A DNA stretch of 31,782 nucleotides from a virus (taxonomy: Duplodnaviria; Caudoviricetes), in IMG/VR virus record IMGVR_UViG_3300005662_007671, positions 1 through 31,782 of that record; one strand, given 5' to 3'. The notes under the pieces are model-generated. The model searched no databases. It saw nothing but the letters and a program-made list of their open reading frames with translations, and was not told the DNA's origin. Below, in pieces: positions 8,890 to 31,782 of this stretch. The position numbers and the translations under genes were made by a program. Each line of letters starts with the position of its first letter. Within the stretch, counting starts at the first letter, position 1.

Positions 8890-8918
8890 AAAAGGGTGGA
8901 TTTTTTCCACCCTTTTTT
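8890..8918 (+). terminator. intrinsic terminator after the major capsid gene
   Basis: AAAAGGGTGGA-TTTTT-TCCACCCTTTT followed by further Ts. Confidence 0.85.
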
Positions 8919-8971: not shown

Positions 8972-11722
8972 ATGAAAAAATTACTTTATGTAGCACCGCA
9001 TTTATCCACAGGTGGCTTACCACAATATTTAACTAAAAAAATTGAACTTCTTAGAGACAGTTTTGATATCTATGTAGTTGAATGGTCAAACCATACTGGT
9101 GGTGTATTAGTTGTACAGCGCGATAAAATAACTTCTATGGTTGCTAGGGATAAATTCTTTACTCTAGAGGAGAATAAAATGGAATTAATTGATATCATCA
9201 ATAATATTTCACCCGATATTGTCCATTTAGAAGAAATTCCAGAGTATTTTATGGATTTTGATGTCGCAAAGGAGCTATATAAAAAAGATAGAAATTATAT
9301 TATCGTTGAAACTTCGCATGATTCATCATATGATGCGACACAAAAGAAATTTTTCCCAGATAAATTTATGTTTGTCTCTAATTGGCAGATCAAACAATAT
9401 GAGTCAATCGATATCCCAAAAGTTTTAGTTGAATATCCTATTGAATATAAACAAAGGCCTAATAGAGAAGACGCTTTAAGAGATCTTGGTTTAGACCCTA
9501 GCAAAAAACATGTTCTACACGTAGGTTTATTCACACCAAGAAAAAACCAGAAAGAATTTTTTGAATACGCTAGATCTCTACCAGAATATGTTTTCCATTC
9601 GGTTGGAAACCAAGCTGGTAACTTTGCTCATTACTGGGAACCACTTATGGTTGATAAACCAAGTAATGTTGTTTGGCATGGTGAGAGAAAAGATGTTGAT
9701 AGATTCTACCAGGCAATGGATTTATTCCTATTTACGTCAAGAGGAACTGATAACGATAAAGAAACGATGCCATTGGTTATTCGTGAGGCCATCTCATGGA
9801 ATCTACCGATTTTAATTTACAATTTAAACGTTTATTTAAACTATTTTGATAAGTTTGATAACGTTAACTATTTGGATTTCACTGACTTTGATAAAAATTG
9901 TGAAATAATTAAAAATACGCTTGAGGTGGGTTATGAAACAAATACAGTTCTAGACATTAACAGATCAAACGAGGCTATAATCATCTCAACCTACCCAACA
10001 ACAAAAAGTTCTTTTGATACAACTGTTGAGTGTATTTTAGCGGCAAAGAAAACTGGTAGAAAAATCATATTAACTTCCCATTTACCAATTTCACCAGATT
10101 TACAAGATTTGGTTGACTACTGTGTTTACGATAAAAACAATATTTTAACAAAACACACTTTTTATTCCCAAAGTAGATACGGCGAGGGTGATTTCTTTGC
10201 TTTTGTTAATTTAAGAGGTGAGGGTAATGATGTTTACCACGGCCCAACTTGCTATACAAACTACTATAATGGCGCCGCTTTAGCTCACGAGTTAGGTTTT
10301 GAGAAGATTTATTTCCTTAACTATGATTATGTTTTAAAAAATGACGCTTATTTGGATAACGTATCTAGTGTGTTGAATAGAAAATCAGCTTATTTTGGGG
10401 ATATGCCTAATAACGCTGAGGGTCACTCAGTTACAACGTTTTTTATGGGTATTAAACCATGGTTTTACTTAAATAACGTTGAGCGAGTTTTTACTGCTGA
10501 GGATTATGAGAGTTTAAGACATAAATGGGGTTCTTATAGCAATGGTTATGAGAATTTAATGTATTTTGCCTTTAAAGATAAGTTAAATGAAATTGAATTA
10601 GTTGGTGAAGAGATTTTTAAGACGGAAATCGCAACAAATTTTCATCACAGGGACTATTCTAGAGTAGAATATTTCACTTTATTACCAACTAATTTACCAA
10701 ATACGTTTGCAACATATTTCCAAGTCTCTAATTCAATAGATAGTCGTATTGTTAACATAAAAATTAACAAAAATGGTTCCCTATTGCACGAAGAACAATT
10801 AACCGTTACGGGTAAAGGTGCTTGGTATCGAATCATTAATTTTGATCTGAGTGAAGACGCTAAATATCTTATTGAGTATTCCTCTTTTGATAAAGACACC
10901 CAACAATTTATTGAATATAAATCAATTGATGTTAATAATGAGTACCTAACAACGAAATTACCAAATAACGGTATGTTTACATATAACGGTGACGTGAATA
11001 GTGTTAACATATTAAAAGGTGAGGACGATGGTAAGCCAAAAATTAGGATTGTTCATTTGGTGACAGAACCAACAACAAATCAAAAAGAACTTAGATCAGC
11101 GTTTTCATTGAAAGATTTCGCCAGTAATTTCAGTAACGTTGAGTATTATGAGCAAGTTAATGTGATTTACAAAGATCTACCGCCAGTTGACACTTGTAAT
11201 AGACCCCATGATGTTGCGTCTGAACCAGGGTATTTTAAATTATCACCAGGGCACTACGGGTGTTTCTTAGCGCATAAAAATGGTATCACTTTACCAGACA
11301 ATGATAAGTATGACTTTATACTTGTTTTTGAGGGTGACGTTATCATTGATAGCCCATACCAAGAATTATACGACAATTTAATTAGATGGTCCCAATTAGC
11401 CAAAGAAGAAAATGTTGATATGGTTGGTTTTGGTAATTATGTTGCTGAGAGATATAATGGACAACGAGAAGATCTATTATTGAATTTAAGTATCTTCGCG
11501 CCAGCACAATCTTACTTGATTAACAGGGATAAATTACCTACTTTTGTTGAGAAGTTTGAAACTTGTAAGTGGGATGCGTTTGACCTGTGGATGACCAAAG
11601 TCGCTGGTTTACATGGTGCAATGGCAACCAAGGTTTATACAAAACATTTACCTGGGTATTCAATTGTGGATAAAAAAGATAAGAATAAAGATAACGATGT
11701 TGCGGCTATATTCGCAAATTAA
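8972..11722 (+). CDS. multi-domain glycosyltransferase: GT4 (GT-B), putative GT-A-like middle domain, GT25-like C-terminal domain
   Basis: N-terminal HLSTGGLPQY, HVGLFTPRKNQ, DLFLFTS...ETMPLVIREA (GT4 E-x7-E). Middle ILTSHLP...FLNYDYVL. C-terminal GHYGCFLAH (residue 760)...ILVFEGD...AQSYLIN resembles GT25. Confidence 0.82.
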   Translation: MKKLLYVAPHLSTGGLPQYLTKKIELLRDSFDIYVVEWSNHTGGVLVVQRDKITSMVARDKFFTLEENKMELIDIINNISPDIVHLEEIPEYFMDFDVAKELYKKDRNYIIVETSHDSSYDATQKKFFPDKFMFVSNWQIKQYESIDIPKVLVEYPIEYKQRPNREDALRDLGLDPSKKHVLHVGLFTPRKNQKEFFEYARSLPEYVFHSVGNQAGNFAHYWEPLMVDKPSNVVWHGERKDVDRFYQAMDLFLFTSRGTDNDKETMPLVIREAISWNLPILIYNLNVYLNYFDKFDNVNYLDFTDFDKNCEIIKNTLEVGYETNTVLDINRSNEAIIISTYPTTKSSFDTTVECILAAKKTGRKIILTSHLPISPDLQDLVDYCVYDKNNILTKHTFYSQSRYGEGDFFAFVNLRGEGNDVYHGPTCYTNYYNGAALAHELGFEKIYFLNYDYVLKNDAYLDNVSSVLNRKSAYFGDMPNNAEGHSVTTFFMGIKPWFYLNNVERVFTAEDYESLRHKWGSYSNGYENLMYFAFKDKLNEIELVGEEIFKTEIATNFHHRDYSRVEYFTLLPTNLPNTFATYFQVSNSIDSRIVNIKINKNGSLLHEEQLTVTGKGAWYRIINFDLSEDAKYLIEYSSFDKDTQQFIEYKSIDVNNEYLTTKLPNNGMFTYNGDVNSVNILKGEDDGKPKIRIVHLVTEPTTNQKELRSAFSLKDFASNFSNVEYYEQVNVIYKDLPPVDTCNRPHDVASEPGYFKLSPGHYGCFLAHKNGITLPDNDKYDFILVFEGDVIIDSPYQELYDNLIRWSQLAKEENVDMVGFGNYVAERYNGQREDLLLNLSIFAPAQSYLINRDKLPTFVEKFETCKWDAFDLWMTKVAGLHGAMATKVYTKHLPGYSIVDKKDKNKDNDVAAIFAN

Positions 11723-11731
11723 AAAGATATT

Positions 11732-12679
11732 ATGAAAATATGTCAAGTACATCCTGGATGCGGGATACCAGTTCCACCACCTAATTGGGGTGCTGTTGAA
11801 AAAATTGTATGGGAGTTTACACAAAATCTTAGAAAATTAGGGCATGAGGTTGATATAAAATTCGCCAACGAAATTCAACCAGGTGAGTATGATATCGTAC
11901 ACGTGCATATGGCAAACCTTTGTCACTTCTTACATGAAAGAAACATACCATATATTTACCAATTACACGATCATCACGCTTTTTATTACGGTAAAAACTC
12001 ATTTGTTTTTAAAGAAAATTTAAAAGCTATTGAAAATTCATTGGTTTCACTAATGCCTGGTAAATTTTTAGTACCATATTTCGATACACCCAAAGCAGTA
12101 TATTTTTCACATGGTGTTAACACGGATTTTTTCACTCCAGCTAAAAACCCACCCAAAGAACATAGGTTATTGTGTTTAGCTAATAACGGTTTGGCTGGTA
12201 TGAATGGTTATGATAGAAAAGGTTTTGGTTTTGCTATTAAAGCTGCCATGGCTAGGAATCTACCAATCACAATAGCTGGACCTAGAAATAATGAAAATTT
12301 TTTAAATGAGAACCCATGGGTTTTTGGTTACCCAAAATTAAACCTGGAATGGGAACCTAATCAAGAAGAACTTGTTGATCTCTATCATAGACACACAATT
12401 TTTATGCACCCGTCTGAACTAGAAGCTGGTCACCCTAATTTAACTATATTGGAAGCGGCCGCTTGTGGATTACCTGTTAATGGTTGGATTGAGATGGAAA
12501 CTGACTTTAGTGGTATGTGGAGAGCGCCAAGAAATGTTTTAGACCTAGTACGTGGGTTGGATGATATAACAAACAATTATGACACTTACAGAGCTAGAGC
12601 CATTGCGCATGCGGAGAGTTTATCTTGGTACAATAGATCGGTAGAATTAGCGGAAGTATTTAAAGGTTTCACTCAATGA
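11732..12679 (+). CDS. glycosyltransferase family 4 (GT-B)
   Basis: IPVPPPNWGAVEKIV, LGHEV, DIVHVH, HGVNTDFF, RKG, PSELEAGHPNLTILEAAACGLPV. Confidence 0.9.
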   Translation: MKICQVHPGCGIPVPPPNWGAVEKIVWEFTQNLRKLGHEVDIKFANEIQPGEYDIVHVHMANLCHFLHERNIPYIYQLHDHHAFYYGKNSFVFKENLKAIENSLVSLMPGKFLVPYFDTPKAVYFSHGVNTDFFTPAKNPPKEHRLLCLANNGLAGMNGYDRKGFGFAIKAAMARNLPITIAGPRNNENFLNENPWVFGYPKLNLEWEPNQEELVDLYHRHTIFMHPSELEAGHPNLTILEAAACGLPVNGWIEMETDFSGMWRAPRNVLDLVRGLDDITNNYDTYRARAIAHAESLSWYNRSVELAEVFKGFTQ

Positions 12680-14304
12680 AAATACTAGGGATATCAGCTG
12701 GTCACCATTGCTGTGGCATTAGTTTAATGGATAACGGTAAAATTGTTTTTTCTCTAGAAGAAGAAAGACATAATAGGATAAAAGTTTATAAAGATTTTTA
12801 TTCAGACACTTTTAGAGCCCCGCATTTAAGTTTAAGAGATGCGATGGATAAACTATCGTTAAATATAAACGATATCGACTACATCACTAGTTATTACCCC
12901 AAAAAAGAAGTTAAAATTATATGGGATGCACTGGAAACTGGTTTACCGTTCCCAGAACATAAGTTTATTTTTGTTGATCACCACGATTCTCATGCGGCTA
13001 CAGCGTATTATTTGAGTGGGTTTGAAGACGATACCTTAGTTGTGACGATGGATGCTAGTGGTGGTGATTATAGTGCAAAATATTTTATAGGTAGTAACGG
13101 TAATTTAAATTTTATCGATGGTCTTGGTCTTAATAACAAATCTTTTGGTCATTATTATGCTATGTTAACCGAATTTTTGGGTTTTAAGAGATTAAAAGAT
13201 GAGGGCAAGGTGGTCGGTATGGCTGGTCATGGTAAACATGAGATTTTTGCTTATAAATCTTTTAATGATGCTATAAAAATAGAAGGTATACACACCGATA
13301 AAGATGATTCTGGTGTTTTATTCGGTCAAGTTTATCTAGATTTTTACACATCTTTTTACAAGAGAATGGGGTCTAGAGTTTATTTTGGTGGTAAACAAGA
13401 TTTAGCGTATAACGGACAACTAGTTTTTGAGGAGAAGATAGTTCAGTTGTTAACGAATCTTCATAACCTTTACCCGAATATTAAAAAAATCGCATTAGCT
13501 GGTGGGGTTTTTGCTAACGTTAAATTAAATAAACGAATTAACGAGCAATACTGGGTTAATGAAGCTTTCATCGCACCACCAATGGGTGATGAGGGTTGCG
13601 CACTTGGGTGTGCTTTAACAGTACATAAAATGTTTAACCCAGAGTTTAAACCATTCAGGTTAAATGATGTTTTTATGGGTACATCATACACTGATGATGA
13701 GGTTGGTGATCAATATTGGGATGTTAACAAGTTTAGTCGAGAGCTTTTTACACCACAAATAGCGGCCAAGTACTTGGCTAACGGTAAAATTATCGGTGTT
13801 TTTAATGGTAGATACGAACACGGCCCAAGGGCTTTGGGTAATAGAAGTATTATTGGTGAGGTAACTAACCCAGAAACATACGATAAAATCAATAACAAGC
13901 TACAGAGAAACGATTTTATGCCATTTGCACCAGCTGTAATGGAAGAACACGCTAATACAATCTTTAAGGTGGATAAATCAGCTTACACCGCTGAATTTAT
14001 GACAATGCTATACGATACAAGACCAGAATGGTCTGAAAGAATACCAACAGTCGTACACCCTAAAGATAAAACAGCTAGGATACAAATAGTAACGCCAAAA
14101 TCAAATCCAACATTTTATAAAATATTGGATGAATATAATAAGATAACGGGCGTACCTGTTTTATTAAACACATCATTTAATGTACACGAAGAACCAATCG
14201 TTTGTCACCCAAACGAAGCTTTTGCACATTTAGAAAACGATGTTGTTGATCTACTGATAATAAATAATTTTATATATAAAAAGTATGAAGGAAACATTAA
14301 TTAA
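12676..14304 (+). CDS. O-carbamoyltransferase, NodU/CmcH/TobZ family
   Basis: ILGIS, EEERHNRIK, HHDSHAA, MDASG, EGKVVGMA, AGGVFANVKLN, PMGDEGCALG, EHGPRALGNRSI, FMPFAP, GVPVLLNTSFNVHEEPIV; ATGA overlap with the upstream GT4. Confidence 0.95.
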   Translation: MKILGISAGHHCCGISLMDNGKIVFSLEEERHNRIKVYKDFYSDTFRAPHLSLRDAMDKLSLNINDIDYITSYYPKKEVKIIWDALETGLPFPEHKFIFVDHHDSHAATAYYLSGFEDDTLVVTMDASGGDYSAKYFIGSNGNLNFIDGLGLNNKSFGHYYAMLTEFLGFKRLKDEGKVVGMAGHGKHEIFAYKSFNDAIKIEGIHTDKDDSGVLFGQVYLDFYTSFYKRMGSRVYFGGKQDLAYNGQLVFEEKIVQLLTNLHNLYPNIKKIALAGGVFANVKLNKRINEQYWVNEAFIAPPMGDEGCALGCALTVHKMFNPEFKPFRLNDVFMGTSYTDDEVGDQYWDVNKFSRELFTPQIAAKYLANGKIIGVFNGRYEHGPRALGNRSIIGEVTNPETYDKINNKLQRNDFMPFAPAVMEEHANTIFKVDKSAYTAEFMTMLYDTRPEWSERIPTVVHPKDKTARIQIVTPKSNPTFYKILDEYNKITGVPVLLNTSFNVHEEPIVCHPNEAFAHLENDVVDLLIINNFIYKKYEGNIN

Positions 14305-15520
14305 CGAATACAATAACACTGAAATTTTATCTAGGGACTATAAAGAACCCTCTAACTCATTCATCGTACATTTCATTAACGGAGTTTTTTGTGAGATAAA
14401 AGGTCCTTTATCTAAGAAATATCGTGTGGTGTTCATGGATAACAAAACTGGTGATGTGCATCATATCACCGAAATAACAAATAACATGTGGACCAAGAGT
14501 TCTATACAATATTTTATTGAATGGGGTGTTAAGGTTTATGATGTTGAAAGTAACGAGTTGGTTTTTGAACACAATTATGATGCATCAGGTAAAAAGGTTT
14601 ATATACATTTAGATAGTAGCGCTGTTGGTGATACATTAGCTTGGTTCCCATTTGCTGATGAGTTTAGAAAAAAACATAATTGTAAAGTTGCGGTGTCTAC
14701 ATTCCATAATGAATGGTTTGAAAAGATGTACCCAGAATTAGAGTTTATTAAACCAGGTACACCCGTACCAAATTTGTATGCAATGTATACCGTTGGTTGG
14801 TTCTATGATAATAAAGAGGTTGTTAAAAGTAGAATACCAATTGATTTTAAAGAACACCCGCTACAAAAAACTAGTAGTGTTATCTTAGGTTTAGATCATG
14901 TTGAAGTAAAACCTAAAATGGACGTACCTAGTGAACCAAGTAGGTTTGACGGTAAATATGTTGTTATCGCACCACACGCTTCTGCACATGCTAAATATTG
15001 GAATCATCCTGGTGGTTGGCAAACAATTGTTGACTATCTTAATGACCGCGGTTATAAAGTTGTGATGATAACATCAGAAAAATTGGGTGATAACTGGCAT
15101 GATTCAAAACTTGGTGGTACCCTTAAAAATGTAATCGATAAAACTGGTGGTGATATACCTTTAACAGATAGAATGATTGATATCAAAAACGCCGACATGT
15201 TTATTGGTCTTGGTAGTGGCTTAAGTTGGATGTCATGGGCGATCGGTACCCCAACAGTATTAATTTCAGGATTCAGTTATCCTTTATCTGAATTTGAGGA
15301 CTGCGTTAGAATATTTACCCCAGATCCAGAGAACACTTGTAACGGTTGTTTTAATAGACATTGGTTAAACCCAGGTGATTGGGAATGGTGCCCAGAACAT
15401 AAAGACACACCAAGACACTTTGAATGTACAAAAACCATAAAACCAGAAATGGTTATCGATGGTATTGAATCTGTTATAGGTAAAAAAGAGAAGAAAACTT
15501 TTTTTGGTAAATATTTTTAA
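14285..15520 (+). CDS. Aah/TibC-like autotransporter heptosyltransferase (BAHT family) protein O-glycosyltransferase
   Basis: N-terminal beta domain (WTKSSIQYFIEW), SAVGDTLAWFPFADEFRKKHNC (Asp116 equivalent to the catalytic base), HPLQKT, AKYWNHPGGW, FIGLGSGLSWMSWA, LISGFS, and iron-finger cysteines C352, C355, C369, C381 (CNGC...WCPEHKDTPRHFECTKTI). Confidence 0.88.
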   Translation: MKETLINEYNNTEILSRDYKEPSNSFIVHFINGVFCEIKGPLSKKYRVVFMDNKTGDVHHITEITNNMWTKSSIQYFIEWGVKVYDVESNELVFEHNYDASGKKVYIHLDSSAVGDTLAWFPFADEFRKKHNCKVAVSTFHNEWFEKMYPELEFIKPGTPVPNLYAMYTVGWFYDNKEVVKSRIPIDFKEHPLQKTSSVILGLDHVEVKPKMDVPSEPSRFDGKYVVIAPHASAHAKYWNHPGGWQTIVDYLNDRGYKVVMITSEKLGDNWHDSKLGGTLKNVIDKTGGDIPLTDRMIDIKNADMFIGLGSGLSWMSWAIGTPTVLISGFSYPLSEFEDCVRIFTPDPENTCNGCFNRHWLNPGDWEWCPEHKDTPRHFECTKTIKPEMVIDGIESVIGKKEKKTFFGKYF

Positions 15521-15521
15521 C

Positions 15522-15529
15522 TATATTTG
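15522..15529 (+). promoter_or_regulatory. Bacteroidota-type -7 promoter element TATATTTG
   Basis: Exact TAnnTTTG match in the short intergenic gap before the glucosaminidase gene. Confidence 0.5.
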
Positions 15530-15553
15530 TCGTCACGATAATAAGTGGTGACA

Positions 15554-16123
15554 ATGTTTTACAGATACGACAGTAACCAACTGAAGTTTGTCAAAGACAA
15601 ATTAAGTGTTAAAATAGCATTGGGAACCACCATTTTACTAATGGTTGGTTCCTTTTTTATTGGTAGACATTTTCAATCTGATACTCTAGATACAATAGAG
15701 AGTAAGGTTCGTATAATAAATCTACAAAAAGAGCGAGATAAATTTTCTAAAGATAAATTTATTGATGAACTTAAAAATAATGGGATAAAATTCCCCCACA
15801 TTGTTATGGCGCAAGCTATTGTTGAAAGTGGTTTAGGGAGAAGCGACCTATTCAAATCGAATAATAATTTATTTGGTATGAGGGAAGCTAAGAGTAGGAT
15901 GACGACATGTTCTGGGTCAAAAAATAACTTTGCTTATTATAAAAGGTGGCAAGATGGTATAGTAGATATGGGGTTTTTCCAATCAACGTATTTAAATAAC
16001 ATCAACACTGAAGAAAAGTATTATTTATTCCTTTCAGCACATTACGCAGAAGCCCCAACCTATGCACAAACAATTAAAAACATTGTGGATAAACAAAAAT
16101 TAAAATCATATTTTAATGAGTAA
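15554..16123 (+). CDS. GH73-like glucosaminidase (peptidoglycan hydrolase) with an N-terminal membrane anchor
   Basis: AQAIVESG (catalytic Glu), NNLFGM, YAEAPTY; hydrophobic IALGTTILLMVGSFFIG near the N-terminus. ATG 15554 preferred over GTG 15545. Confidence 0.8.
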   Translation: MFYRYDSNQLKFVKDKLSVKIALGTTILLMVGSFFIGRHFQSDTLDTIESKVRIINLQKERDKFSKDKFIDELKNNGIKFPHIVMAQAIVESGLGRSDLFKSNNNLFGMREAKSRMTTCSGSKNNFAYYKRWQDGIVDMGFFQSTYLNNINTEEKYYLFLSAHYAEAPTYAQTIKNIVDKQKLKSYFNE

Positions 16124-16949
16124 AGAAAAATTAAAAGATATTTTGTCAACACCAACTTACTGTGGTCAAGAACAATATCTCATATCTAAAATAACAAAAT
16201 ATCTTAGCGAAGCTAATTTAGATTATGTTATAGATGAACATGGTAACATTTTCGTTACAAAGGGTGTTGCCGAACATTATCCATGCGTTGTTGCGCACAC
16301 AGATTCTGTACACAGGATTGTTGATATGGATATCCTACACCATCCAGATGAAGATGATATAATATATGCTGTTGAAAGGGGTACAAATAAGCCAACTGGG
16401 TGCGGTGGGGATAATAAAGCGGGTGTTTATGTATGTTTGGAGCTACTTGAGCGTGTAGAGGTCTTAAAAGCCGCTTTTTTCGTATCTGAGGAGTACGGTT
16501 GTTTCGGCTCAACACTAGCCGATGAAGTTTTCTTTGAAGACGTTGGTTATGCGTTACAATTTGACGCGCCCGAAAATGATTGGGTGACCCATTATTGTAA
16601 CGGTGTCAAGTTATTTGACGAAAATGGTGATTTTTATAAAACAATTCAACCAATATTGGAAGATTATATGGGTGATTACACTCTGGGTCGACACCCATAC
16701 ACAGATGTTAGTGTTTTAGGGGCTTTTTACGATTTTTCATGTATAAATTACTCTGTTGGTTACTATAACATGCACTCTGCAAGAGAATATGTTAGTATTA
16801 GTTACGCACAACAAGCCCGAAATATCGCTTTAGAGATGATTTCTTCCCTGGGTAATATAAAGTATCCATTTATTGATGAAAACGTCAGGATCGATAAGGA
16901 AAGGGTTAAAGAAAGGGCTTTAAAATCCCTTAATGGTTTAAGGAAATAA
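16116..16949 (+). CDS. Zn-dependent M20/M28/M42-clan peptidase or amidohydrolase
   Basis: Metal-ligand motifs AHTDSV, GGDNKAG, SEEYGCFGS, QFD, YTD, GYYNMHSAREY. Confidence 0.85.
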   Translation: MSKEKLKDILSTPTYCGQEQYLISKITKYLSEANLDYVIDEHGNIFVTKGVAEHYPCVVAHTDSVHRIVDMDILHHPDEDDIIYAVERGTNKPTGCGGDNKAGVYVCLELLERVEVLKAAFFVSEEYGCFGSTLADEVFFEDVGYALQFDAPENDWVTHYCNGVKLFDENGDFYKTIQPILEDYMGDYTLGRHPYTDVSVLGAFYDFSCINYSVGYYNMHSAREYVSISYAQQARNIALEMISSLGNIKYPFIDENVRIDKERVKERALKSLNGLRK

Positions 16950-16974
16950 AAAAAGGGGCCTAGGCCCCTTTCTT
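16948..16974. terminator. bidirectional terminator between the convergent peptidase and fibre genes
   Basis: Perfect 20-nt palindrome AAAGGGGCCTAGGCCCCTTT (16952-16971) with an A-run on the left, giving a U-tract for the minus strand. Confidence 0.85.
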
Positions 16975-16979
16975 ATTTA

Positions 16980-19900
16980 TTATTTCTTTAACTCTTGAAT
17001 CTCTTTATCGAGGTCTTTTATTGCTTCGATAAGTAATCCAACTAGATTTGAGTAAGCAACCGCTAAGTGCCCATCAGATTCTCTCATTGAGATAACTTCT
17101 GGAACAACTTTTTGAACTTCTTGAGCAATAACACCCATTTTCAACGATTTATCCTCAACATCATTTCTAGTATAGTTAACACCTCTCATACTTCTTACTT
17201 TATTTAAGGCGTCACTGATAGTAACAACATTTTCCTTAACTCTTTGATCCGAGTACGCGATAACATCACCAGACGCGTAGATAGTACCATTGACATCTAA
17301 CGTATATGCTGGCGAGTTATTGTTTATACCAAGTCTAGTATTTGTTATATCAGCTTTCAAGAAGCTAACACTTTGAACAGTTGCTGTACCAGTTGTTCTA
17401 ACTAAGAAGTCAGGTTGGTTCGTGAAAGATCCACCACTGATACCAGATGTTCCGTTAATGGTTTGACCGTTTGTACCAGCATTACCTGAAGTACCGTTTG
17501 TACCGTTTGCCCCAGAAACACCACTAACACCGTTGTTACCACTGTTACCGTTAACACCAGATGTTCCGTTAGTACCAGATGAACCAGAAGCATTTGATCT
17601 ACCTGAAGTACCAGCGTTACCGTTAACACCGTTAGAACCGTTAGTACCAGAAGAACCAGAAACACCGCTGTTTCCGTTAGCACCGTTGTTACCGTTAGCA
17701 CCGTTTGTACCGTTAGAGCCATTCACACCAGAAACACCGCTAACACCGTTGTTACCATTGTTACCGTTGTTACCGTTTGTACCGTTAGAACCATTAGAAC
17801 CAGATACACCGCTTAGGCCGCTATTACCGCTCACACCATTGTTACCACTAGTACCGTTAGTACCGTTAGATCCAGATACACCACTTACACCAGAACCGCC
17901 GCTGTTACCGCTCACACCATTGTTACCAGAGGTACCATTAGAACCGCTTGTTCCTGAAGTTCTAGATAAACCTGAGTTACCAGCATTACCATTAACACCT
18001 GAAGAACCAGATGAACCAGATGAACCAGATACTCCGCTTAAACCAGAGTTACCATTATTACCAGCAACACCGTTTGTACCGTTAGAACCATTAGAACCAG
18101 ATACTCCGCTATTACCGCTATTACCACTAGCTCCGTTGTTACCATTTGTACCATTAGATCCGTTAGAACCAGATACACCGCTTAAACCTGAAGCTCCGTT
18201 GTTACCGTTGTTACCACTAGTACCAGAAGAACCACTTGTACCAGAGGTTCTTGATAAACCAGATACACCAGCAACACCACTAGCACCAGCTGAACCGTTT
18301 GATCCTGAAGAACCAGAAGTACCAGAAGTACCACTACCAGGGGCAGCGCCAGCACCACCACTAACACCATTGTTACCAGTTGTACCGTTAGAACCTGTTG
18401 ATCCAGAAGATCCAGAAGATCTAGATAAACCAGATACACCAGCAGCACCATCATTACCACTAGTACCAGAAGAACCTGAAGAACCAGAAGATCTTGATAT
18501 ACCAGATACACCGTTAGAACCAGCTGTTCCTGAAGAACCCGAAGAACCTGAAGCTCCTGAAGCACCTGGAGCCATGCTCATACCTGAAGTACCAGCCGTA
18601 CCAGTTGATCCCGAAGAACCTGAAGCGCCGCTAGCTCCATTAGCACCGTTGTTACCATTGTTACCGTTTGTACCGTTAGAACCATTAGAACCAGATACAC
18701 CACTTAAACCAGAGTTACCATTATTACCAGCAACACCATTTGAACCAGAAGAACCAGAAGTTCCTGAAGTTCTAGATAAACCTGAATTACCAGCGTTACC
18801 TGAGTTACCCGATGTACCATTTGAGCCAGTAGATCCAGAAGATCCAGATACACCACTCACACCAGAACCACCGTTATTACCAGATATACCGTTTGTACCG
18901 TTAGAACCATTAGAACCAGATACACCTGAGTTACCAGAATTACCAGAGTTACCATTATTACCAGAGGTACCGTTAGATCCGTTAGAACCAGATACACCAC
19001 TTACACCTGAGTTACCACTATTACCAGCAACACCGTTAGAACCGTTTGTACCAGAAGAACCAGAAGAACCTGAAACGGTTGATGTTCCCGAAGGTACTGG
19101 TAAACCACTTGTACCAGCAGTACCAGTTGATCCTGAAGAACCCGAGTTAGCACTCAATCCACTGTTACCAGCGTTACCAGATGAACCATTAGATCCTGAA
19201 GTACCTGAAGTACCTGAAGATTTAGATAAACCACTATTACCAGCAGCACCGTCAGTACCTGAAGAACCAGTCGATCCAGAAGAACCAGAAGTACCTGAAG
19301 ATTTAGATAAACCACTATTACCAGCGTTACCAGTTGTACCACTTGTACCTGTTGATCCAGAAGAACCAGAAGTACCACTACCAGGGGCAGCGCCAGCACC
19401 ACCACTAACACCGTTCATACCGATCGTACCATTAGAACCAGCTGTTCCTGAAGACCCAGAAGAACCTGAATTAGCCGAAGCACCGCTGTTACCAGCATTA
19501 CCTGAAGTACCGTTAGAACCAGCTGTTCCTGAAGAACCCGAAGAACCTGAAGCTCCTGAAGCACCTGGAGCCATGCTCATACCTGAAGTACCAGCGGAAC
19601 CTGTCGATCCTGAAGATCCAGAGGCACCACTAGCCCCATTAGCGCCGTTATTACCACTAGAACCATTAGAACCTGAAGAACCTGATGTACCAGATACCTT
19701 ACTTTGTCCGCTATCACCAGCTAAACCAGTTGTACCCGTAGATCCAGAAGATCCTGAAGAACCACTTACTGTTGAAGCACCATTATTACCAGCAACACCG
19801 TTAGAACCGTTTGTACCAGTCGATCCTGAAGAACCCGAGTTAGCACTCAATCCACTGTTACCAGCGTTACCTGAAGTACCGTTAGAACCTGAGGTTGCTG

Positions 19901-22900: not shown

Positions 22901-25136
22901 AACCAGTAGAACCAGAAGATCCGCTTGTCGCTGAAGAACCGCTGTTACCAGCCGAACCAGCGGTACCCGTTGATCCTGAAGTACCAGAAGACCCACTTGT
23001 ACCAGAAGATTTACTCAAACCTGATTGACCGTCAGTTCCCGAAGTACCAGAAGACCCACTTGTACCAGAAGATTTACTCAACCCACTATTACCAGCATTA
23101 CCTGAAGTACCGTTTGTACCAGTTGATCCAGATGAGCCACTTGTTCCTGAAGAAGCTGACACATTTGAAGATCCCGCTGAACCAGCTGTTCCTGTTGATC
23201 CAGAAGAACCACTTGTTCCTGAAGTAGCTGAACTACCAGCAGAACCTGATAAACCTGATTGGCCATTTGATCCAGCAGAACCTGATGTACCAGAAGTTGC
23301 TGAAGAACCCGCAGAACCACTTAACGCTGAGGCGCCAGAGGTACCATTTGTACCAGTTGATCCAGAAGAACCAGATGTTCCTGAAGTACCCGAAGAATTT
23401 GACGCATTTGAAGAACCAGCCGAACCAGCGGTACCCGTTGAACCGCTTGTACCTGATGTACCAGAAGATTTAGACAAACCACTATTACCGTCAGTACCTG
23501 ATGTACCAGTTGACCCTGATGTACCTGAAGATTTTGATAAACCACTGTTACCAGCATTACCTGAAGTACCATTAGATCCTGTTGATCCTGAAGTACCACT
23601 TGTTGCTGATGAACCGCTAGATGAACTTAAACCCGCAGAACCACTTGTACCTGAAGACCCCGAAGATGCACTTGATCCAGATGTACCTGAAGTTCCTGAA
23701 GAACCCGCAGAACCACTTAGACCCGCTGATCCTGAAGTACCAGTTGAACCGCTAGACCCAGACGTTCCTGATGAAGCCGAGGCATTTGATGAACCCGCTG
23801 TTCCAGCGGAACCTGTTGAACCTGAAGATCCACTAGATCCAGACGTTCCTGATGATTTTGATAAGCTTGATTGGCCATCAGTACCACTTGTTCCTGTAGA
23901 ACCAGAAGAACCAGATGTTCCAGAGGATTTAGACAAACCACTATTACCTGCGTTACCTGAAGTACCGTTTGTACCAGTCGATCCAGAAGAACCTGAGGTT
24001 GCTGAAGACCCACTCAAGGCTGAAGATCCGCTTGTACCCGCAGAACCTGAAGTTGCCGATGAACCAGAAGATGCTGATGCGCCCGCAGAACCAGACGATC
24101 CAGATGTACCTGAGGTTGCAGAACTACCACTGTTACCCGATTGTCCGTTTGATCCACTTGTTCCTGAAGAACCAGCTGATCCACTTGTTGCTGAAGAACC
24201 AGCTGACCCAGATAATCCTGACTGACCGTTTGAGCCAGCAGTACCTGTTGAACCACTAGTACCTGATGTACCAGAAGATGCTGAAGCATTTGATGATCCA
24301 GCAGTACCTGAAGTACCAGTACTACCACTAGAACCTGAAGTCCCCGAAGACTTACTCAAACCTGATTGACCGTCTGTACCAGTTGATCCCGAAGAACCAC
24401 TTGTTGCTGAAGAACCTGAAGCCGCAGATCTACCCGATGAACCTTCTGATCCAGATGAACCCGCTGATCCACTTGTCGCTGAAGAACCCGCAGATCCGCT
24501 TAAACCTGATAAACCAGCTGATCCCGCGGATCCAGAAGAACCTGAAGTTCCTGATGATTTTGACAAACCAGATTGACCATCTGTACCAGCAGAACCAGTT
24601 GAACCGCTTGTACCTGATGTACCAGAAGATGCTGAAGCATTTGATGATCCAGCGGATCCAGCGGTGCCTGTTGATCCAGATGAACCACTTGTACCTGAAG
24701 AATTACTACCACCTGAAGCACCAGCTGTGCCAGTAGAACCAGAAGAACCGCTTGTACCCGAGCTAGCGCTTAAAGCTGAAGACCCGATTGTACCTGAAGT
24801 ACCTGTTGAACCTGAGGAACCAGATGTTCCTGAAGATTTTGATAAACCTGATTGACCATCAGTACCAGTTGAGCCTGATGTACCTGAAGATCCAGAGGTT
24901 TTGCTTAGACCACTACCACCAGTGGTTCCAGTTGTCCCTGAAGACGCAGAAGATCCAGAGGTACCACTTAAACCAGAAACCCCTGATGTTCCCGTAGTAC
25001 CCGCTGTCCCTGATGTTAATGATGTGTAGGTGAATTCACCCGATGCTGGATCAAATGAAACGTAGTGTGAAGGAGATAAATTCTCATCCACATTTTTTCC
25101 AAAAATACCACTTCTTATAATGTGTTCGTTTGCCAT
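16980..25136 (-). CDS. giant Gly-Xaa-Ser/Thr repeat fibre protein (2718 aa) with C-terminal peptidase S74 intramolecular chaperone
   Basis: About 42 aa unique N-terminus, about 2500 aa of triplet repeats, then [36 protein letters not shown]...[15 protein letters not shown]...[17 protein letters not shown], the S74 autocleavage signature (Ser codon at 17250-17252). Confidence 0.88.
17431..25010 (-). repeat. coding low-complexity 9-nt-period repeat (G-x-S/T/N) with internal block duplications
   Basis: For example 87 nt identical at 18510-18596 and 19509-19595, and 98 nt identical at 21442-21539 and 22657-22754. Confidence 0.9.
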
Positions 25137-25162
25137 TTTGCGTTCTTAAATTATTACTTATC

Positions 25163-25170
25163 TATAAATA
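25163..25170 (-). promoter_or_regulatory. putative phage late promoter motif TATTTATA (reads TATAAATA on +)
   Basis: 26 nt upstream of the minus-strand ATG at 25136, between the two fibre genes. Confidence 0.55.
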
Positions 25171-25204
25171 TATTTTTTAGTTAAAAAACACCCGTATTAT
25201 TAAA

Positions 25205-28200
25205 TTAAACTCTAATTAATTTTATACTAAATGTTATATTGTATGATGACCCATCACCGTTGTTAGCTAACAATCTAAAATCAGTACCAGAAATATCTGT
25301 AAGTAATCTTATACCGCTCGTTGACCCACCAATATCGGCTGTTGAAGTTTCGTCATATACAGTGTTTCCACCTGTGTGGGTTGACCTTAATGTGCCAGCT
25401 CTAAACCCACCACTAGTAACGTTCTCAATCACATAATCAACAAACATACCCAGCACATTATTAGGGCTATTATCGATCACTTTCAATGGTGTTACACCCG
25501 ATGAAGTAGATGTTGCTTTATCCGATAACATCATCGAATATAAACCTAACCCCAACGCGTTATGTGTTGAATCGTAAGTAAAGTCAGTGAGTACTTCAAA
25601 TCTGTTATTAGCCGCATCCCAAATAAACACACCGTTTTGTGTTGAACCGTTAATATCAAGACCGACTGTTACATCAGATGATAAAGCACCACCACCAGTT
25701 ACTGGTGCAGTTACATTAACGTTAACGTAAGTACCGTTTGTACCAACATTACCACTTATACCAGATGTACCCGCAGAACCACTAGATCCAGATGTACCAG
25801 AAGAACCAGATAATGAACTACCACCATAAGTACCACCAGATCCAGATGTACCTGATGAACCTGACGTACCTGAAGATGCACTTAAAGCAGATGCTCCGAT
25901 TGTACCAGCGGTACCTGTGCTACCAGAAGAACCAGATGTTCCTGAAGACCCAGAGGCGTCACTTCTACCACTTGTACCACCAGAACCTTGTGAACCGCTT
26001 GAGCCTGATGTTCCTGAAGTTGCTGATGCTGCGCTATTACCAGCGATACCAGCAGTACCTGTAGATCCAGTAGAACCAGATGTACCCGAAGATCCTGAAG
26101 TACCAGATACCTTACTTTGTCCACTATCACCAGCTAAACCAGTTGTACCCGTAGATCCAGAAGATCCTGAAGTACCTGAAGAAGCACTTAATGATGACGA
26201 ACCAATAGTACCATTTGTACCAGTCGACCCAGAAGAACCTGACGTACCTGAAGAAGCACTTAAAGCTGAAGAACCTGACGTACCTGAAGTGGCTGATGAA
26301 CCTGAAGTACCCGCAGAACCTGACGTACCTGAAGATAAGGAGCTACCGCTAGTACCAGCTGTACCAGTTGAACCGCTTGTTGCTGATGAACCACTAGAGC
26401 CACTCAACGCTGAAAGACCTGAAGTACCAGCTGTACCTGTGGATCCACTAGAACCACTTGTACCAGAACTTGCGCTTAAAGCCGAAGACCCAATTGTACC
26501 AGAAGAACCCGTACTACCAGATGTTCCTGAAGAACCTGAAGTACCAGATACCTTACTTTGTCCACTATCACCAGCCATACCAGTTGTACCAGTTGTACCT
26601 GAAGACCCAGATGTTCCTGAAGAAGCACTTAATGATGATGAACCAATAGTACCATTTGTACCCGTAGATCCAGATGAACCTGAAGTACCTGAAGAAGCTG
26701 AAGAACCGCTTAACGCTGATGTACCAGACGTACCAGTTGATCCAGATGTTCCTGAAGTTGCTGAAGAACCCGAAGTACCCGCAGAACCTGAAGTACCTGA
26801 AGATAAAGAGTTACCACTTGTACCAGCGGTACCTGTTGATCCAGATGAACCACTTGTTGCTGAAGAACCAGAAGCTGCTGATCTACCAGAAGAACCTTCA
26901 GTACCAGAAGAACCTGAAGAACCAGACGTTCCTGATGTGCCTGAAGACGAACTTAACGCTGAAGCGCCACTAGTACCATTTGTACCAGTACTACCAGAAG
27001 AACCACTTGTTCCTGAAGAAGCTGAAGCATTTGATGAACCCGCTGTACCAGCAGAACCTGTTGAACCTGAGGAACCAGATGTTCCAGAAGAACCAGATGT
27101 CCCACTTAATGCTGATGAACCAGATGTACCTGTACTACCAGATGTTCCTGAAGAACCAGATGTTGCTGATGAACTAGAACCACCTGAAGATCCAGCGGTA
27201 CCTGTTGATCCTGATGTACCAGATAAACCGCTAGTACCATTTACACCACTAACACCATCAATACCAGTTGTACCAGATGTACCAGATGAACCAGAAGTTC
27301 CTGAAGACCTAGAAAGTGCTGATGAACCAATAGTACCATTTGTACCAGTCGACCCAGAAGAACCAGATGTCCCTGAAGATGCTGAAGACCCAGCTAAAGC
27401 TGAAGACCCAGATGTTCCAGATGACCCAGATGTTCCCGAAGATCCAGCTAACGCTGATGTGCCAGACGTACCAGTTGAACCACTTGTACCCGAACTTGCT
27501 GAAGAACCAGATGTTCCTGAAGAAGCTGATAACCCAGATGAACCTGACGTACCAGTTGACCCAGATGAACCTGAAGTTGCTGAAGAACCAGACGCTGCTG
27601 ATAAACCAGATGAACCTTCAGTACCAGAAGATGCTGATGAACCACTAGTACCTGATGTACCCGAAGATGCGCTTAAACCAGATAGACCAGATGAACCATT
27701 CGTACCAGTAGATCCTGAAGATCCGCTAGTACCAGATGTACCACTTGAACCACTACCCAAAGAAACACAGAACTCCAATACCATAGGTGTACCTGGTGCG
27801 GGTGAAGCGTCCGCTGGTCCTGAAACGAATGATACGTTAAATACGTGGTAACTACCAGAGTCTGAGTTAGACAATATAGTATAAATGTAACCATTAATTG
27901 TTATTTGAGATCCAGCGGAAAGTGCATCTAATGCCGCATCGCGATCTATATTACCACCATCCGTGTCACTTATTTTAATACTAGTAACAAAACTACCCAA
28001 TGAACCGTTTTGACTAATTAACTCGCCGTTATTTGGCCCCAAATCTGGGTCAAACGACCAAACATATTCTAATGAGAAACAACCCAAACCAGATATACCA
28101 GACGTACCAACAGAACCTGAAGATCCACTTGAACCTGAGGTTGCTGAAGATGCTGAATCACCACTCTCACCACTTGTACCAGTAGAACCAGAAGACCCAC

Positions 28201-31200
28201 TTGTACCAGAAGTTGCTGAAGAACCACTTAAAGCTGATGTACCAGATGTTCCTGAAGATGCTGATGAACCAGAAGAACCACTTGTCCCTGAAGATGCTGA
28301 TGAACCAGCTGAACCGCTAAATCCAGATGTACCTGAAGAACCATCACTTCCAGATGAACCTGAAGATGCCGAAGAACCCGCTGATCCACTTATACCACTT
28401 GTTCCTGAAGACCCATCAGAACCACTTGATCCTGAAGATGCTGATGAACCAGATGAACCATCCGATCCACTTAACCCACTTGTACCAGCTGTACCGTCAA
28501 CACCAGAGAAACCTGAAGTTCCTGATGAACCTGACACCCCTGATACACCGTTAACACCATCTAAACCTGAAGAACCTGATGAACCATCAGATCCTGAAGA
28601 ACCACTTTCCCCGCTAAATCCAGCTGTACCTGAAGAACCATCTGATCCAGAAGATCCTGAAGATGCTGATGAACCAGCTGAACCGCTAAATCCAGATGTA
28701 CCTGAAGAACCATCACTTCCAGATGAACCTGAAGATGCTGATGAACCAGACTCGCCTGAAACACCAGACGTACCTGAAGAACCGTCTGATCCCGAAGAAC
28801 CAGAACTTGCCGATGTACCACTTATACCTGAAGAACCAGATGTTCCTGAAGACCCATCAGAACCACTTGATCCTGAAGAACCAGATTCACCGCTTATACC
28901 ATCACTACCAGAAGATCCTGAAGAAGCTGAAGAACCGCTTGAACCAGATTCACCGCTTATACCACTCGTTCCTGAAGAACCATCGCTACCACTTGATCCT
29001 GAAGATCCACTTGATGATGACAAACCAGAAGTACCATCAACACCACTTGTTCCTGAACTTCCATCGCTACCACTTGTTCCTGAAGACGCTGATGAACCAG
29101 ATGAACCACTTATACCTGAAGATCCATCACTTCCAGATGAACCAGAACTTGCTGAAGAACCAGCAGATCCGCTTTCACCACTTATACCACTTGTACCTGA
29201 ACTACCATCAGATCCAGAACTTGCTGAAGAACCTGAAGTTCCTGAACTTGCTGAAGATCCACTAAATCCAGAAGTACCTGAAGAACCATCACTACCAGAT
29301 GAACCTGAAGATGCCGAAGAACCCGCTGATCCACTTATACCTGAAGATCCATCACTTCCAGATGAACCAGAACTTGCTGAAGAACCAGATTCGCCAGAAA
29401 TACCACTTGTACCTGAACTACCATCAGATCCACTTGATCCTGAAGAGCCGCTATTACCACTTGTACCAGCCGTACCATCAACACCAGAGAAACCTGAAGT
29501 TCCTGAAGATCCCGATACACCACTGACACCGTTAACACCATCCAAACCGCTTGATCCAGAAGAACCGTCAGAACCACTTGATCCTGAGAAACCAGAGATA
29601 CCTGAAGATCCATCTGATCCTGAAGATCCAGAACTTGCTGAAGAACCGCTTTCGCCACTTATACCTGAAGAACCTGAAGATCCATCACTTCCAGATGAAC
29701 CTGAAGATGCTGAAGAACCAGATTCACCAGAGACACCACTTGTACCTGAACTACCGTCAGAACCAGAACTTGCTGAAGAACCAGATGTTCCTGATGAAGC
29801 GGATGTACCACTAAATCCTGAAGTTCCTGAAGAACCATCAGAACCAGAAGAAGCTGATGAACCAGAAGACCCACTCTCACCTGAAGAACCTGAAGAACCA
29901 TCACTTCCAGATGAACCAGATTCACCAGAGAAACCACTTGTTCCTGAAGAACCATCTGATCCAGAAGATCCTGAAGATGCTGATGAACCAGCTGAACCGC
30001 TAAATCCACTTGTTCCTGAAGAACCATCTGACCCAGAAGACCCACTTAAACCTGAAGATCCGTTTGAGCCTGTTGAGCCGCTTTCAGCACTTGTCCCTGA
30101 AGAACCCGTAGAACCTGATTGACCAGACGTACCAGCTGAGCCAGTTGAACCACTTATACCCGATGAACCATCAGAACCACTTATACCAGAAGTTCCTGAA
30201 GATCCATCAGAACCACTTGATCCTGAAGATCCACTTAAACCACTCGTACCTGAAGAAGCATTACTACCGCTTTCACCACTCGTGCCTGAAGAACCATCTG
30301 ATCCTGAAGTACCTGAAATCCCTGAAATACCACTAGCACCATCAATACCTGATGTACCTGAAGTTCCTGAAGAACCATCACTACCTGATGATCCACTCAC
30401 GCCAGAACTTCCATCACTACCAGAAGACCCGCTTAAACCTGAAGATGCTGAACTACCAGAAGACCCGCTTATACCTGAAGTTCCTGAACTACCGTCAGAA
30501 CCAGAACTTGCTGAAGAACCAGATGTTCCTGATGAAGCGGAAGAACCACTTAACCCACTTGTTCCTGAAGAACCGTCAGACCCTGAAGAACCAGAGCTTG
30601 CTGAAGAACCCGCAGAACCACTTATACCTGAAGATCCATCACTACCAGATGAACCAGAACTTGCTGAAGAACCAGATTCACCAGAGATACCTGATGAACC
30701 TGAGGAACCGTCAGATCCAGAAGAACCACTATTACCACTTGTACCAGCTGTACCATCAACACCAGAGAAACCTGATGTACCATCAGAACCTGAAACTCCC
30801 GATACACCGTTAACACCATCCAAACCGCTTGATCCAGAAGAACCGTCAGAACCAGAAGAACCAGAAATACCTGAAATACCACTAGAACCATCACTACCAG
30901 AAGATCCTGAAGATGCTGAAGAACCCGCTGATCCACTAAATCCAGATGTACCTGAAGAACCGTCCGATCCTGCCGAGCCGCTAAATCCAGACGTACCCGA
31001 AGATCCATCACTTCCAGATGAGCCAGACTCGCCTGAAGAACCGTTTGACCCTGTTGAGCCACTTTCACCACTTGTACCTGAAGATGCTGAAGAACCACTT
31101 ATACCAGAAGTTCCTGAAGAACCATCACTACCACTTGAGCCACTTAAACCTGAACTACCATTTGAGCCAGATTCACCACTTGTACCTGAAGAACCGTCTG

Positions 31201-31782
31201 ATCCAGAAGAACCAGAACTTGCTGAAGATCCACTTTCACCACTAGAACCATCACTACCACTAGAACCACTTAAACCAGAAGAACCACTGCTTCCACCAAA
31301 ACCTGAAGAACCAGAAGACCCGTCAGAACCCGAAGATCCACTTATACCGCTAACACCGTTAGAACCAGCTTGCCCACTTGTTCCTGAAGAACCATCGCTA
31401 CCTGAAGTAGCTGAAATACCACTTATACCACTAACACCATCAATACCCGATGAACCACTCGTACCCGAAGAACCATCGCTACCAGAAGAACCTGAAACAC
31501 CAGAAGAACCATCGCTACCAGATGAACCAGAAATACCAGATGAACCGTTTGACCCAGAAGAACCACTTAAACCTGAACTTCCATCAGAACCACTTGATCC
31601 TGAAGATGCTGATGAACCAGACTCACCTGAAACACCACTTGTTCCTGAAGAACCATCGGAACCAGATGACCCAGATGAACCTGAAGAACCATCAGAACCA
31701 CTATTACCACTTGTACCAGCTGTACCGTCAACACCAGAGAAACCACTCGTTCCTGAAGATCCTGACACACCGCTAACACCGT
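25205..31782 (-). CDS. second giant Gly-Xaa-Ser repeat fibre protein (more than 2190 aa, 5' end beyond the window) with an inserted globular domain and a C-terminal beta-rich domain
   Basis: The frame is open to the window edge ([10 protein letters not shown]...), so GTG 31768 is an internal Val. Non-repeat insert at about 27755-28090; unique C-terminal ~175 aa (FVDYVIEN...RAGTL...DETSTADIGGSTSGI...FSIKLIRV). Confidence 0.85.
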   Translation of the reverse strand, partial: GVSGVSGSSGTSGFSGVDGTAGTSGNSGSDGSSGSSGSSGSDGSSGTSGVSGESGSSASSGSSGSDGSSGLSGSSGSNGSSGISGSSGSDGSSGVSGSSGSDGSSGTSGSSGIDGVSGISGISATSGSDGSSGTSGQAGSNGVSGISGSSGSDGSSGSSGFGGSSGSSGLSGSSGSDGSSGESGSSASSGSSGSDGSSGTSGESGSNGSSGLSGSSGSDGSSGTSGISGSSASSGTSGESGSTGSNGSSGESGSSGSDGSSGTSGFSGSAGSDGSSGTSGFSGSAGSSASSGSSGSDGSSGISGISGSSGSDGSSGSSGLDGVNGVSGVSGSDGTSGFSGVDGTAGTSGNSGSSGSDGSSGSSGISGESGSSASSGSSGSDGSSGISGSAGSSASSGSSGSDGSSGTSGLSGSSASSGTSGSSASSGSDGSSGTSGISGSSGSSASSGLSGSSGSDGSSGVSGSSGSDGSSGTSGTSGIDGASGISGISGTSGSDGSSGTSGESGSNASSGTSGLSGSSGSSGSDGSSGTSGISGSDGSSGISGSTGSAGTSGQSGSTGSSGTSAESGSTGSNGSSGLSGSSGSDGSSGTSGFSGSAGSSASSGSSGSDGSSGTSGFSGESGSSGSDGSSGSSGESGSSGSSASSGSDGSSGTSGFSGTSASSGTSGSSASSGSDGSSGTSGVSGESGSSASSGSSGSDGSSGSSGISGESGSSASSGSSGSDGSSGISGFSGSSGSDGSSGSSGLDGVNGVSGVSGSSGTSGFSGVDGTAGTSGNSGSSGSSGSDGSSGTSGISGESGSSASSGSSGSDGSSGISGSAGSSASSGSSGSDGSSGTSGFSGSSASSGTSGSSASSGSDGSSGTSGISGESGSAGSSASSGSSGSDGSSGISGSSGSSASSGTSGSDGSSGTSGVDGTSGLSSSSGSSGSSGSDGSSGTSGISGESGSSGSSASSGSSGSDGISGESGSSGSSGSDGSSGTSGSSGISGTSASSGSSGSDGSSGTSGVSGESGSSASSGSSGSDGSSGTSGFSGSAGSSASSGSSGSDGSSGTAGFSGESGSSGSDGSSGSSGLDGVNGVSGVSGSSGTSGFSGVDGTAGTSGLSGSDGSSGSSASSGSSGSDGSSGTSGISGSAGSSASSGSSGSDGSSGTSGFSGSAGSSASSGTSGSSGSSASSGTSGTSALSGSSATSGTSGSSGSTGTSGESGDSASSATSGSSGSSGSVGTSGISGLGCFSLEYVWSFDPDLGPNNGELISQNGSLGSFVTSIKISDTDGGNIDRDAALDALSAGSQITINGYIYTILSNSDSGSYHVFNVSFVSGPADASPAPGTPMVLEFCVSLGSGSSGTSGTSGSSGSTGTNGSSGLSGLSASSGTSGTSGSSASSGTEGSSGLSAASGSSATSGSSGSTGTSGSSGLSASSGTSGSSASSGTSGSTGTSGTSALAGSSGTSGSSGTSGSSALAGSSASSGTSGSSGSTGTNGTIGSSALSRSSGTSGSSGTSGTTGIDGVSGVNGTSGLSGTSGSTGTAGSSGGSSSSATSGSSGTSGSTGTSGSSALSGTSGSSGTSGSSGSTGSAGTAGSSNASASSGTSGSSGSTGTNGTSGASALSSSSGTSGTSGSSGSSGTEGSSGRSAASGSSATSGSSGSTGTAGTSGNSLSSGTSGSAGTSGSSATSGTSGSTGTSGTSALSGSSASSGTSGSSGSTGTNGTIGSSSLSASSGTSGSSGTTGTTGMAGDSGQSKVSGTSGSSGTSGSTGSSGTIGSSALSASSGTSGSSGSTGTAGTSGLSALSGSSGSSATSGSTGTAGTSGSSLSSGTSGSAGTSGSSATSGTSGSSALSASSGTSGSSGSTGTNGTIGSSSLSASSGTSGSSGSTGTTGLAGDSGQSKVSGTSGSSGTSGSTGSTGTAGIAGNSAASATSGTSGSSGSQGSGGTSGRSDASGSSGTSGSSGSTGTAGTIGASALSASSGTSGSSGTSGSGGTYGGSSLSGSSGTSGSSGSAGTSGISGNVGTNGTYVNVNVTAPVTGGGALSSDVTVGLDINGSTQNGVFIWDAANNRFEVLTDFTYDSTHNALGLGLYSMMLSDKATSTSSGVTPLKVIDNSPNNVLGMFVDYVIENVTSGGFRAGTLRSTHTGGNTVYDETSTADIGGSTSGIRLLTDISGTDFRLLANNGDGSSYNITFSIKLIRV
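28091..31782 (-). repeat. acidic triplet repeat with a higher-order unit of about 1-1.3 kb
   Basis: Marker CAACACCAGAGAAACC (GFSGVD) at 28498, 29479, 30757 and 31729; spacings 981, 1278 and 972 nt, all multiples of 3. Confidence 0.85.

Follow-up and report, generated by a model that had tools for sequence, protein, structure and literature searches.

The locus described here raises the question of whether a tailed phage encodes both a set of protein-modifying sugar transferases and the giant serine-rich fibres that these enzymes would coat. The window, that is, the whole stretch of 31,782 nucleotides analysed, is a complete IMG/VR record (IMGVR_UViG_3300005662_007671; Duplodnaviria, Caudoviricetes) and represents about 11 % of the genome according to the CheckV estimate.

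Setting and organization of the locus

Profile matches identified T4-type portal, prohead protease and Gp23 capsid genes in the window, and an AAA ATPase gene (3823-4752) lies between the portal-side genes and the prohead protease. The operon following the capsid gene was detected in freshwater metagenomes (11 runs with at least half of its words), and the sole match among 185,579 species genomes was a phage-like contig carrying the same operon in a Flavobacteriales bin, a weak pointer to a possible Bacteroidota host. An assembly artefact at the operon-fibre joint was ruled out by bridging contigs from 3 runs of 3 studies and by the presence of the same joint in relatives of the phage. Short contigs that derive from other Gly-Ser repeats map in their thousands to positions 17786-31782 of the window in four freshwater runs, which suggests that such repeats are widespread and fragment assemblies.

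The operon spans positions 8972-16949 on the plus strand and begins 104 bases downstream of the capsid gene (Table 1). Its first four open reading frames are separated by intergenic gaps of +9, -4 and -20 bases, and their families agree with the first-pass annotation, which had proposed a coupled operon of a multi-domain glycosyltransferase, a GT4 enzyme, a carbamoyltransferase and an Aah/TibC-like transferase. No membrane span was found in these four enzymes, which together hold five transferase domains. The last two genes are glucosaminidase-like and then peptidase-like; the glucosaminidase-family protein has a single hydrophobic N-terminal stretch (hydropathy peak 1.86 at residue 22) and is probably a lysis-related passenger. 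The hairpin between the capsid gene and the operon is expected 0.0 times in shuffled sequence.

Table 1 Features of the operon, the fibre genes and their surroundings in the window
Feature	Position	Strand	Basis and remarks
T4-type major capsid protein	7290..8867	+	PF07068, E 4e-74; neighbour, outside the module in most relatives
Terminator-like hairpin in the capsid gene/operon gap	8890..8916	+	11-pair stem and T run
Triple glycosyltransferase, 916 aa	8972..11722	+	PF00534, fold matches
GT4-like glycosyltransferase, 315 aa	11732..12679	+	PF00534/PF13692/PF13439, slightly below cut-off
NodU/TobZ-type O-carbamoyltransferase, accessory	12676..14304	+	PF02543 and PF16861; PDB matches
Aah/TibC-family (BAHT) O-glycosyltransferase	14285..15520	+	TIGR04414, TibC 4RAP
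Glucosaminidase-family protein	15545..16123	+	PF01832
Metallopeptidase-like protein	16116..16949	+	phrog_4191, E 6e-39
GC hairpin separating converging genes	16950..16975	.	Read directly in the sequence
Fibre 1, 2718 aa, C-terminal S74 chaperone	16980..25136	-	PF01391, PF13884, composition
Fibre 2, >2191 aa, start beyond the window	25205..31780	-	Two Gly-X-Ser blocks, 100-aa inserted domain, 180-aa C-terminal domain

Transferases of the operon

Judged by its sequence, the phage BAHT is a true member of the Aah/TibC enzyme family. It scores 315 bits against TIGR04414 (cut-off 200) over model positions 20-373 of 374, matches the TibC structure 4RAP with an E value of 2e-53, and is about 32 % identical to the enzymes of the TibC-TibA and Aah-AIDA-I systems. 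The catalytic base Asp110 of TibC and its donor-binding Lys230, Trp305 and Arg286 correspond to D116, K237, W315 and R296, and a further donor-binding residue, Thr226, to Ser233. The N-terminal barrel region aligns with that of TibC, as does the four-Cys iron finger (C352, C355, C369 and C381); these cysteines, D116, K237 and W315 are invariant in 33 of 33 phage homologues, and R296 is present in 27 of the 33. Of the TibC thumb (Phe265, Val266, Phe368) the last residue is retained as F379, the thumb tip aligns to a gap and lacks Phe-Val, and Pro300 is replaced by Gly. A search at E 0.001 returned 5,025 homologues, phage and bacterial pooled, and 11 distinct homologous proteins have BAHT fused to GT4. 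Only 4 of 50,697 GenBank phage records carry BAHT: LR756501 and LR756503 (735 kb), the cultured phage Mel-JY01, and LR756504. Five records (G029, G140, G141, G145 and G149) have a separate open reading frame of 220-250 aa that matches TIGR04414 only at positions ~55-160, with 22-32 bits.

The 916-aa protein comprises a GT4-like domain (~1-320), a GT-A fold (~330-590), a beta domain and a GT25-like GT-A fold (~690-916), and was modelled with a pLDDT of 89.5; PF01755 matches weakly in 9 of 23 homologues. The best fold matches of both modelled GT-A domains include the collagen galactosyltransferase COLGALT1, LH3 and mimivirus R699/R655, the COLGALT1 match having an rmsd of ~19 A and being tied with unrelated GT-A enzymes. 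For the middle GT-A domain a WavE-like cluster was a low Atlas lead (0.87). Ten of 15 clade loci contain an inserted FkbM methyltransferase gene, and the operons of other lineages have in addition GT2, GT9, 2OG-Fe oxygenase, sulfotransferase and methyltransferase genes. The extra genes look like a variable decorating kit.

Heptose is a plausible sugar for BAHT on sequence grounds. HldE-like adenylyltransferase and kinase genes, named by best NCBIfam matches that fall short of the cut-off, lie directly 3' of BAHT in two records (G073 and G053); on the other side, no GmhA-like gene was found in the 5 records searched. A full-length RfaE-domain-I-like kinase scoring 284-365 bits was counted in 58 of 201 genomes of the order to which the Flavobacteriales bin belongs, one of them above the cut-off of 345.

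Gly-X-Ser/Thr fibres

The first-pass annotation had noted two huge fibre genes about 1.5 kb beyond its four-gene operon with Ser/Thr at most third positions. Distance and composition were confirmed (1,460 bases past the BAHT gene; 72-84 %), but the genes lie on the minus strand and converge on the operon. Fibre 1 holds 838 Gly-X-Ser/Thr triplets in a single unbroken register, with Gly first in 87 % and Ser/Thr third in 72 %, and contains 871 Ser, 292 Thr and 6 Pro residues. The 13 % of first positions that are not Gly recur at about every 8 triplets; within the N-terminal two thirds, Ala or Lys takes the place of Gly at intervals of ~7-9 triplets. In the two repeat blocks of fibre 2, Ser/Thr is third in 79 % and 84 %, and Gly occupies position 1 in 83 %. 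Gly thus recurs at every third place of the fibres in runs of up to 40 triplets with periodic breaks. Chance origin of the 29-base repeat pattern was ruled out by reading it backwards, which gave 0 or 1 match per record in 32 records.

The S74 chaperone (PF13884) lies at residues 2629-2681 of fibre 1, overlapped by a tail-fibre PHROG match (2611-2717), and suggests that the fibre would be a trimeric part of the virion. No S74 chaperone was found in the in-window part of fibre 2, whose C-terminal domain matches unnamed viral clusters only. With the triple-helix rise of 0.286 nm a residue, fibre 1 would be ~720 nm long. A plain triple helix is nevertheless unsure for fibre 1, because the non-Gly first positions are numerous and periodically spaced, and the periodic breaks may instead indicate a folded polyglycine-type bundle.

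Co-occurrence and gene order

Co-occurrence of BAHT homologues with G-x-S repeats, a test put forward in the first-pass annotation, was borne out. Among 32 large records, Gly-Ser repeats were found in 15 of 16 BAHT-positive versus 1 of 16 BAHT-negative records (Fisher p 9e-7); three of the 15 have only 2-3 pattern matches, and the contig of the BAHT-negative record with repeats (G003) ends inside a fibre. Counts of this kind are raised by relatedness among the phages, by contigs that nearly duplicate one another and by the physical linkage of genes within fragments. Thirteen large records picked by capsid only comprised 4 with both, 8 with neither and 1 with the repeat only (p 0.007). Sampling by the Gly-Ser pattern alone gave 118 stretches in 59 records, and of the 48 records examined 18 carry BAHT, 17 of them over the cut-off, including 3 of 3 that are near-complete. 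Control records picked by a Pro-type collagen motif, mostly small, unrelated phages and not clade-matched, had BAHT in 0 of 50 (0 of 25 near-complete).

LR756501 and LR756503 and the cultured Mel-JY01 have both BAHT and repeats; both are absent from G013 (91 % complete), LR756508 and Flavobacterium phage immuto. The operon is rarely found apart from Gly-X-Ser fibres, yet LR756504 (636 kb) has BAHT above the cut-off and no collagen repeat. Gly-Ser fibres with no BAHT found occur in G038 (79 % complete), G060 (71 %), G077 (67 %) and G063 (57 %), one of which has other sugar genes nearby. With exceptions both ways, the tie as read from these genomes is strong but not obligatory.

At least 5 repeat open reading frames of 1,665-3,488 aa, in two clusters and with 1,462 pattern matches, were seen in LR756501, where a distance of 160-480 kb separates the giant fibres from the operon and only a short repeat is beside it. 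The Gly-Ser repeat of Mel-JY01 (PP395634; L162:2-3052) is an open plus-strand frame where the record annotates two minus-strand hypothetical genes, and it may continue from an unannotated open reading frame at the end of the record; its BAHT is the C-terminal part of a 1226-aa fusion named 'methyltransferase FkbM'. The host listed for Mel-JY01 is Microcystis, yet its capsid scores against the window capsid like that of Flavobacterium phage immuto and its head-gene order is similar, so the listed host may be worth a check.

Gene order ties BAHT to the fibre and supports the earlier proposal of enzyme and substrate in one locus. The best 80 of 176 BAHT loci were used, many being near-copies and not independent events, and 37 were excluded because the upstream sequence was too short. 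Among the 43 informative loci, 37 have a Ser/Thr collagen-like open reading frame; in 27 the fibre is directly upstream on the same strand in the order fibre-GT-GT-BAHT, and in 10 the order is inverted as in the window. The other six informative loci comprise one contig that ends in a fibre tip, two loci that adjoin Pro/Tyr/Gln collagens, and three short contigs in which genes for other modifying enzymes lie upstream. One of the two collagen-adjoining loci belongs to G028, in which a Ser-type gene lies further upstream. The three collagen-like genes upstream of the same operon in G028 (L449/L038) are rich in Pro, Tyr, Gln and Thr and adjoin a GT2-methyltransferase fusion and two 2OG-Fe oxygenase-like genes, possibly for proline hydroxylation of a second fibre type.

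Adjacency to the capsid gene, also claimed previously, holds in the window but is a clade-specific rearrangement, with the terminator-like hairpin in between. An inversion probably placed the operon behind the capsid gene in this clade, because the window operon turned round gives the common order fibre-S74, GT, GT, BAHT, a relative (G001, capsid 77 % identical) carries the block beside the capsid gene in the opposite orientation, and the window-order BAHTs form one branch of the tree.

Proposed function and alternatives

It is likely, from these genomic patterns, that the operon attaches O-linked sugars, within the host cytoplasm, to serines of the Gly-X-Ser fibres that the phage itself encodes. 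The TibC-type BAHT would add the first sugar to fibre Ser from an ADP-sugar, probably heptose and mostly host-made; the GT4, GT-A and GT25-like domains would lengthen the glycan or act at further Ser/Thr sites; and variable extras such as the FkbM methyltransferase and the carbamoyltransferase would decorate it. TibC modifies Ser, not Thr, at an NSGG-type site of a beta-helix and accepts synthetic peptides (PMC4358343), so an unfolded Gly-Ser chain may serve as substrate. Aah/TibC had been offered as the model for the fibre serines; family and residues are shared, but the TibC-type site SGGxQ occurs 0 times and SGG 8 times in ~1,470 fibre triplets, so substrate recognition would have to differ from that of TibC. 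Proline and salt bridges stabilise bacterial collagens, and (Gly-Pro-Thr)10, otherwise a coil, becomes a triple helix when its Thr is galactosylated, according to the available text of PMC11923368. Since the fibre repeats have almost no Pro, 2-6 % charged residues and no KGD/KGE, the one known stabiliser left is a sugar on the hydroxyl of the Y residue, which may stabilise a collagen-like rod of this kind.

One alternative is that the enzymes put their sugars on virion proteins other than the fibre, the capsid in particular, as happens in mycobacteriophages, and that the fibre is a mere neighbour of the operon. The 104-base spacing in the window, LR756504 with the enzyme and without repeats, and known phage capsid and tail-tube glycans (cited in the accessible part of PMC12619734) fit this explanation, which is improbable, however, given that the operon is present at just 5 of 80 capsid loci, that most BAHT loci place it after the fibre and often before the tail sheath, and that the hairpin separates it from the capsid gene. 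Equally little credence is given to remodelling of host LPS or another surface glycan by the operon during infection, for superinfection exclusion, BAHT having a GT9 fold in common with LPS heptosyltransferases. GT4 and GT25 families are frequent in LPS synthesis, PF01075 and weak WaaC/WaaQ matches were obtained for BAHT, and the middle domain has its WavE-like lead; but LPS models reach <=33 bits against 315 bits for the protein-directed family, the barrel region and iron finger align with TibC, the four enzymes are without membrane spans, and linkage to Ser-type repeats is left unexplained.

A third explanation, just as improbable, is that some of the operon acts on phage DNA or nucleotides and has nothing to do with a fibre glycan, the carbamoyltransferase being the main candidate. 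The PDB matches of this enzyme are of the TobZ, GdmN and NovN type. Its 58 viral relatives divide into 17 within BAHT operons, 18 next to a DNA polymerase gene, 5 close to thymidylate synthase and 18 in other places, the second and third groups favouring a role in DNA modification; directly after a two-part family B DNA polymerase, a carbamoyltransferase gene was observed in 18 loci (L494-L524). No dCMP-type (Asp177) thymidylate synthase was found next to the carbamoyltransferase in 16 clade loci, and in the relative G027 (69 % complete) the thymidylate synthase lies 190 kb away and keeps the Asn form, at a motif position that we take to be 177. In a tree of 35 of the 58 relatives, the operon-linked carbamoyltransferases fall on two separate branches, a point against a role in DNA modification. 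One phage carbamoyltransferase produces carbamoylated 5hmC, but GT1-flanked ones sit on unmodified contigs, as reported in the part of PMC8670742 available. For glycosylation of the fibres, a carbamoyl cap is weakly supported, because 41 of the 58 relatives are outside BAHT operons. The carbamoyltransferase, earlier assigned to the glycan system, does belong to the window operon but is accessory, being present in 12 of 80 BAHT loci (best 80 of 176).

Comparison with known systems

The TibC-TibA and Aah-AIDA-I systems (TIGR04414, PDB 4RAP/4RB4) share with the phage locus the enzyme family, the catalytic Asp, Lys, Arg, Trp and four-Cys iron finger, and the position of the enzyme gene beside a long Ser/Gly-rich repeat protein. 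The E. coli partner is an autotransporter beta-helix, whereas its phage counterpart is a Gly-X-Y repeat protein that carries an S74 chaperone and has no NSGG-type sites, and the phage enzyme has Gly for Pro300, a different thumb tip and extra transferases alongside. Membership in the BAHT-autotransporter system was rejected since the neighbours are Gly-X-Y proteins and no autotransporter; by analogy, the phage locus may work like that system.

Mycobacteriophages are tailed phages that encode transferases for glycans of their own virions (Freeman et al. 2023, as cited in PMC12619734; PMC11256854); in the available text the glycans are on capsid and tail-tube C-termini, whereas the window phage has BAHT and hundreds of potential fibre Ser sites. 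The first-pass annotation knew of no characterised tailed-phage system of this kind, which stands for the pairing of a BAHT enzyme with a Gly-Ser fibre, not found in the literature searched, but not for virion glycans at large. Riftia cuticle collagen and Bacillus BclA are glycosylated Thr collagens (cited in the accessible text of PMC11923368 and PMC10141479), alike in having a hydroxyl residue at Y of a collagen-like repeat and a sugar proposed or shown to stabilise the helix; they keep proline and use Thr, whereas the phage fibres use Ser, have almost no Pro and frequently have Ala/Lys for Gly. COLGALT1/LH3 and mimivirus R699 and R655 also have tandem GT-A domains, the second GT25-like (PDB titles), but are 10-13 % identical with other domain packing, the phage fibres are without hydroxylysine acceptors, and fold alone shows no function. 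Moraphages (200-307 kb, mostly freshwater, predicted Bacteroidota hosts) have four core glycosyltransferase groups, and the portion of their main text available makes no mention of heptosyltransferase, collagen or serine (PMC12619734).

Significance

A broader and more tentative reading, judged less likely than not, is that a widespread class of large aquatic phages (up to the 735-kb LR756501) builds sub-micron glyco-collagen fibres of proline-free serine repeats that would fold only after TibC-type and partner transferases had coated serines at hundreds of sites, with lineage-varied methyl and carbamoyl caps and the sugar replacing hydroxyproline as stabiliser of a virion structure, and that phages would be a main home of BAHT. 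Glycosylation of the fibres would bear on the open question of how very long proline-poor collagen-like virus proteins fold and remain stable (raised in the available part of PMC11923368). The fibre-glycosylation hypothesis is testable with the cultured phage Mel-JY01, which has both parts, and the BAHT-operon enzymes might find use in decorating Gly-Ser linkers densely with O-glycans. If true, it would bring an enzyme family that is otherwise known only from proteobacterial adhesins into phages and onto a novel type of substrate, and would provide a second, mechanistically different route to virion glycosylation.
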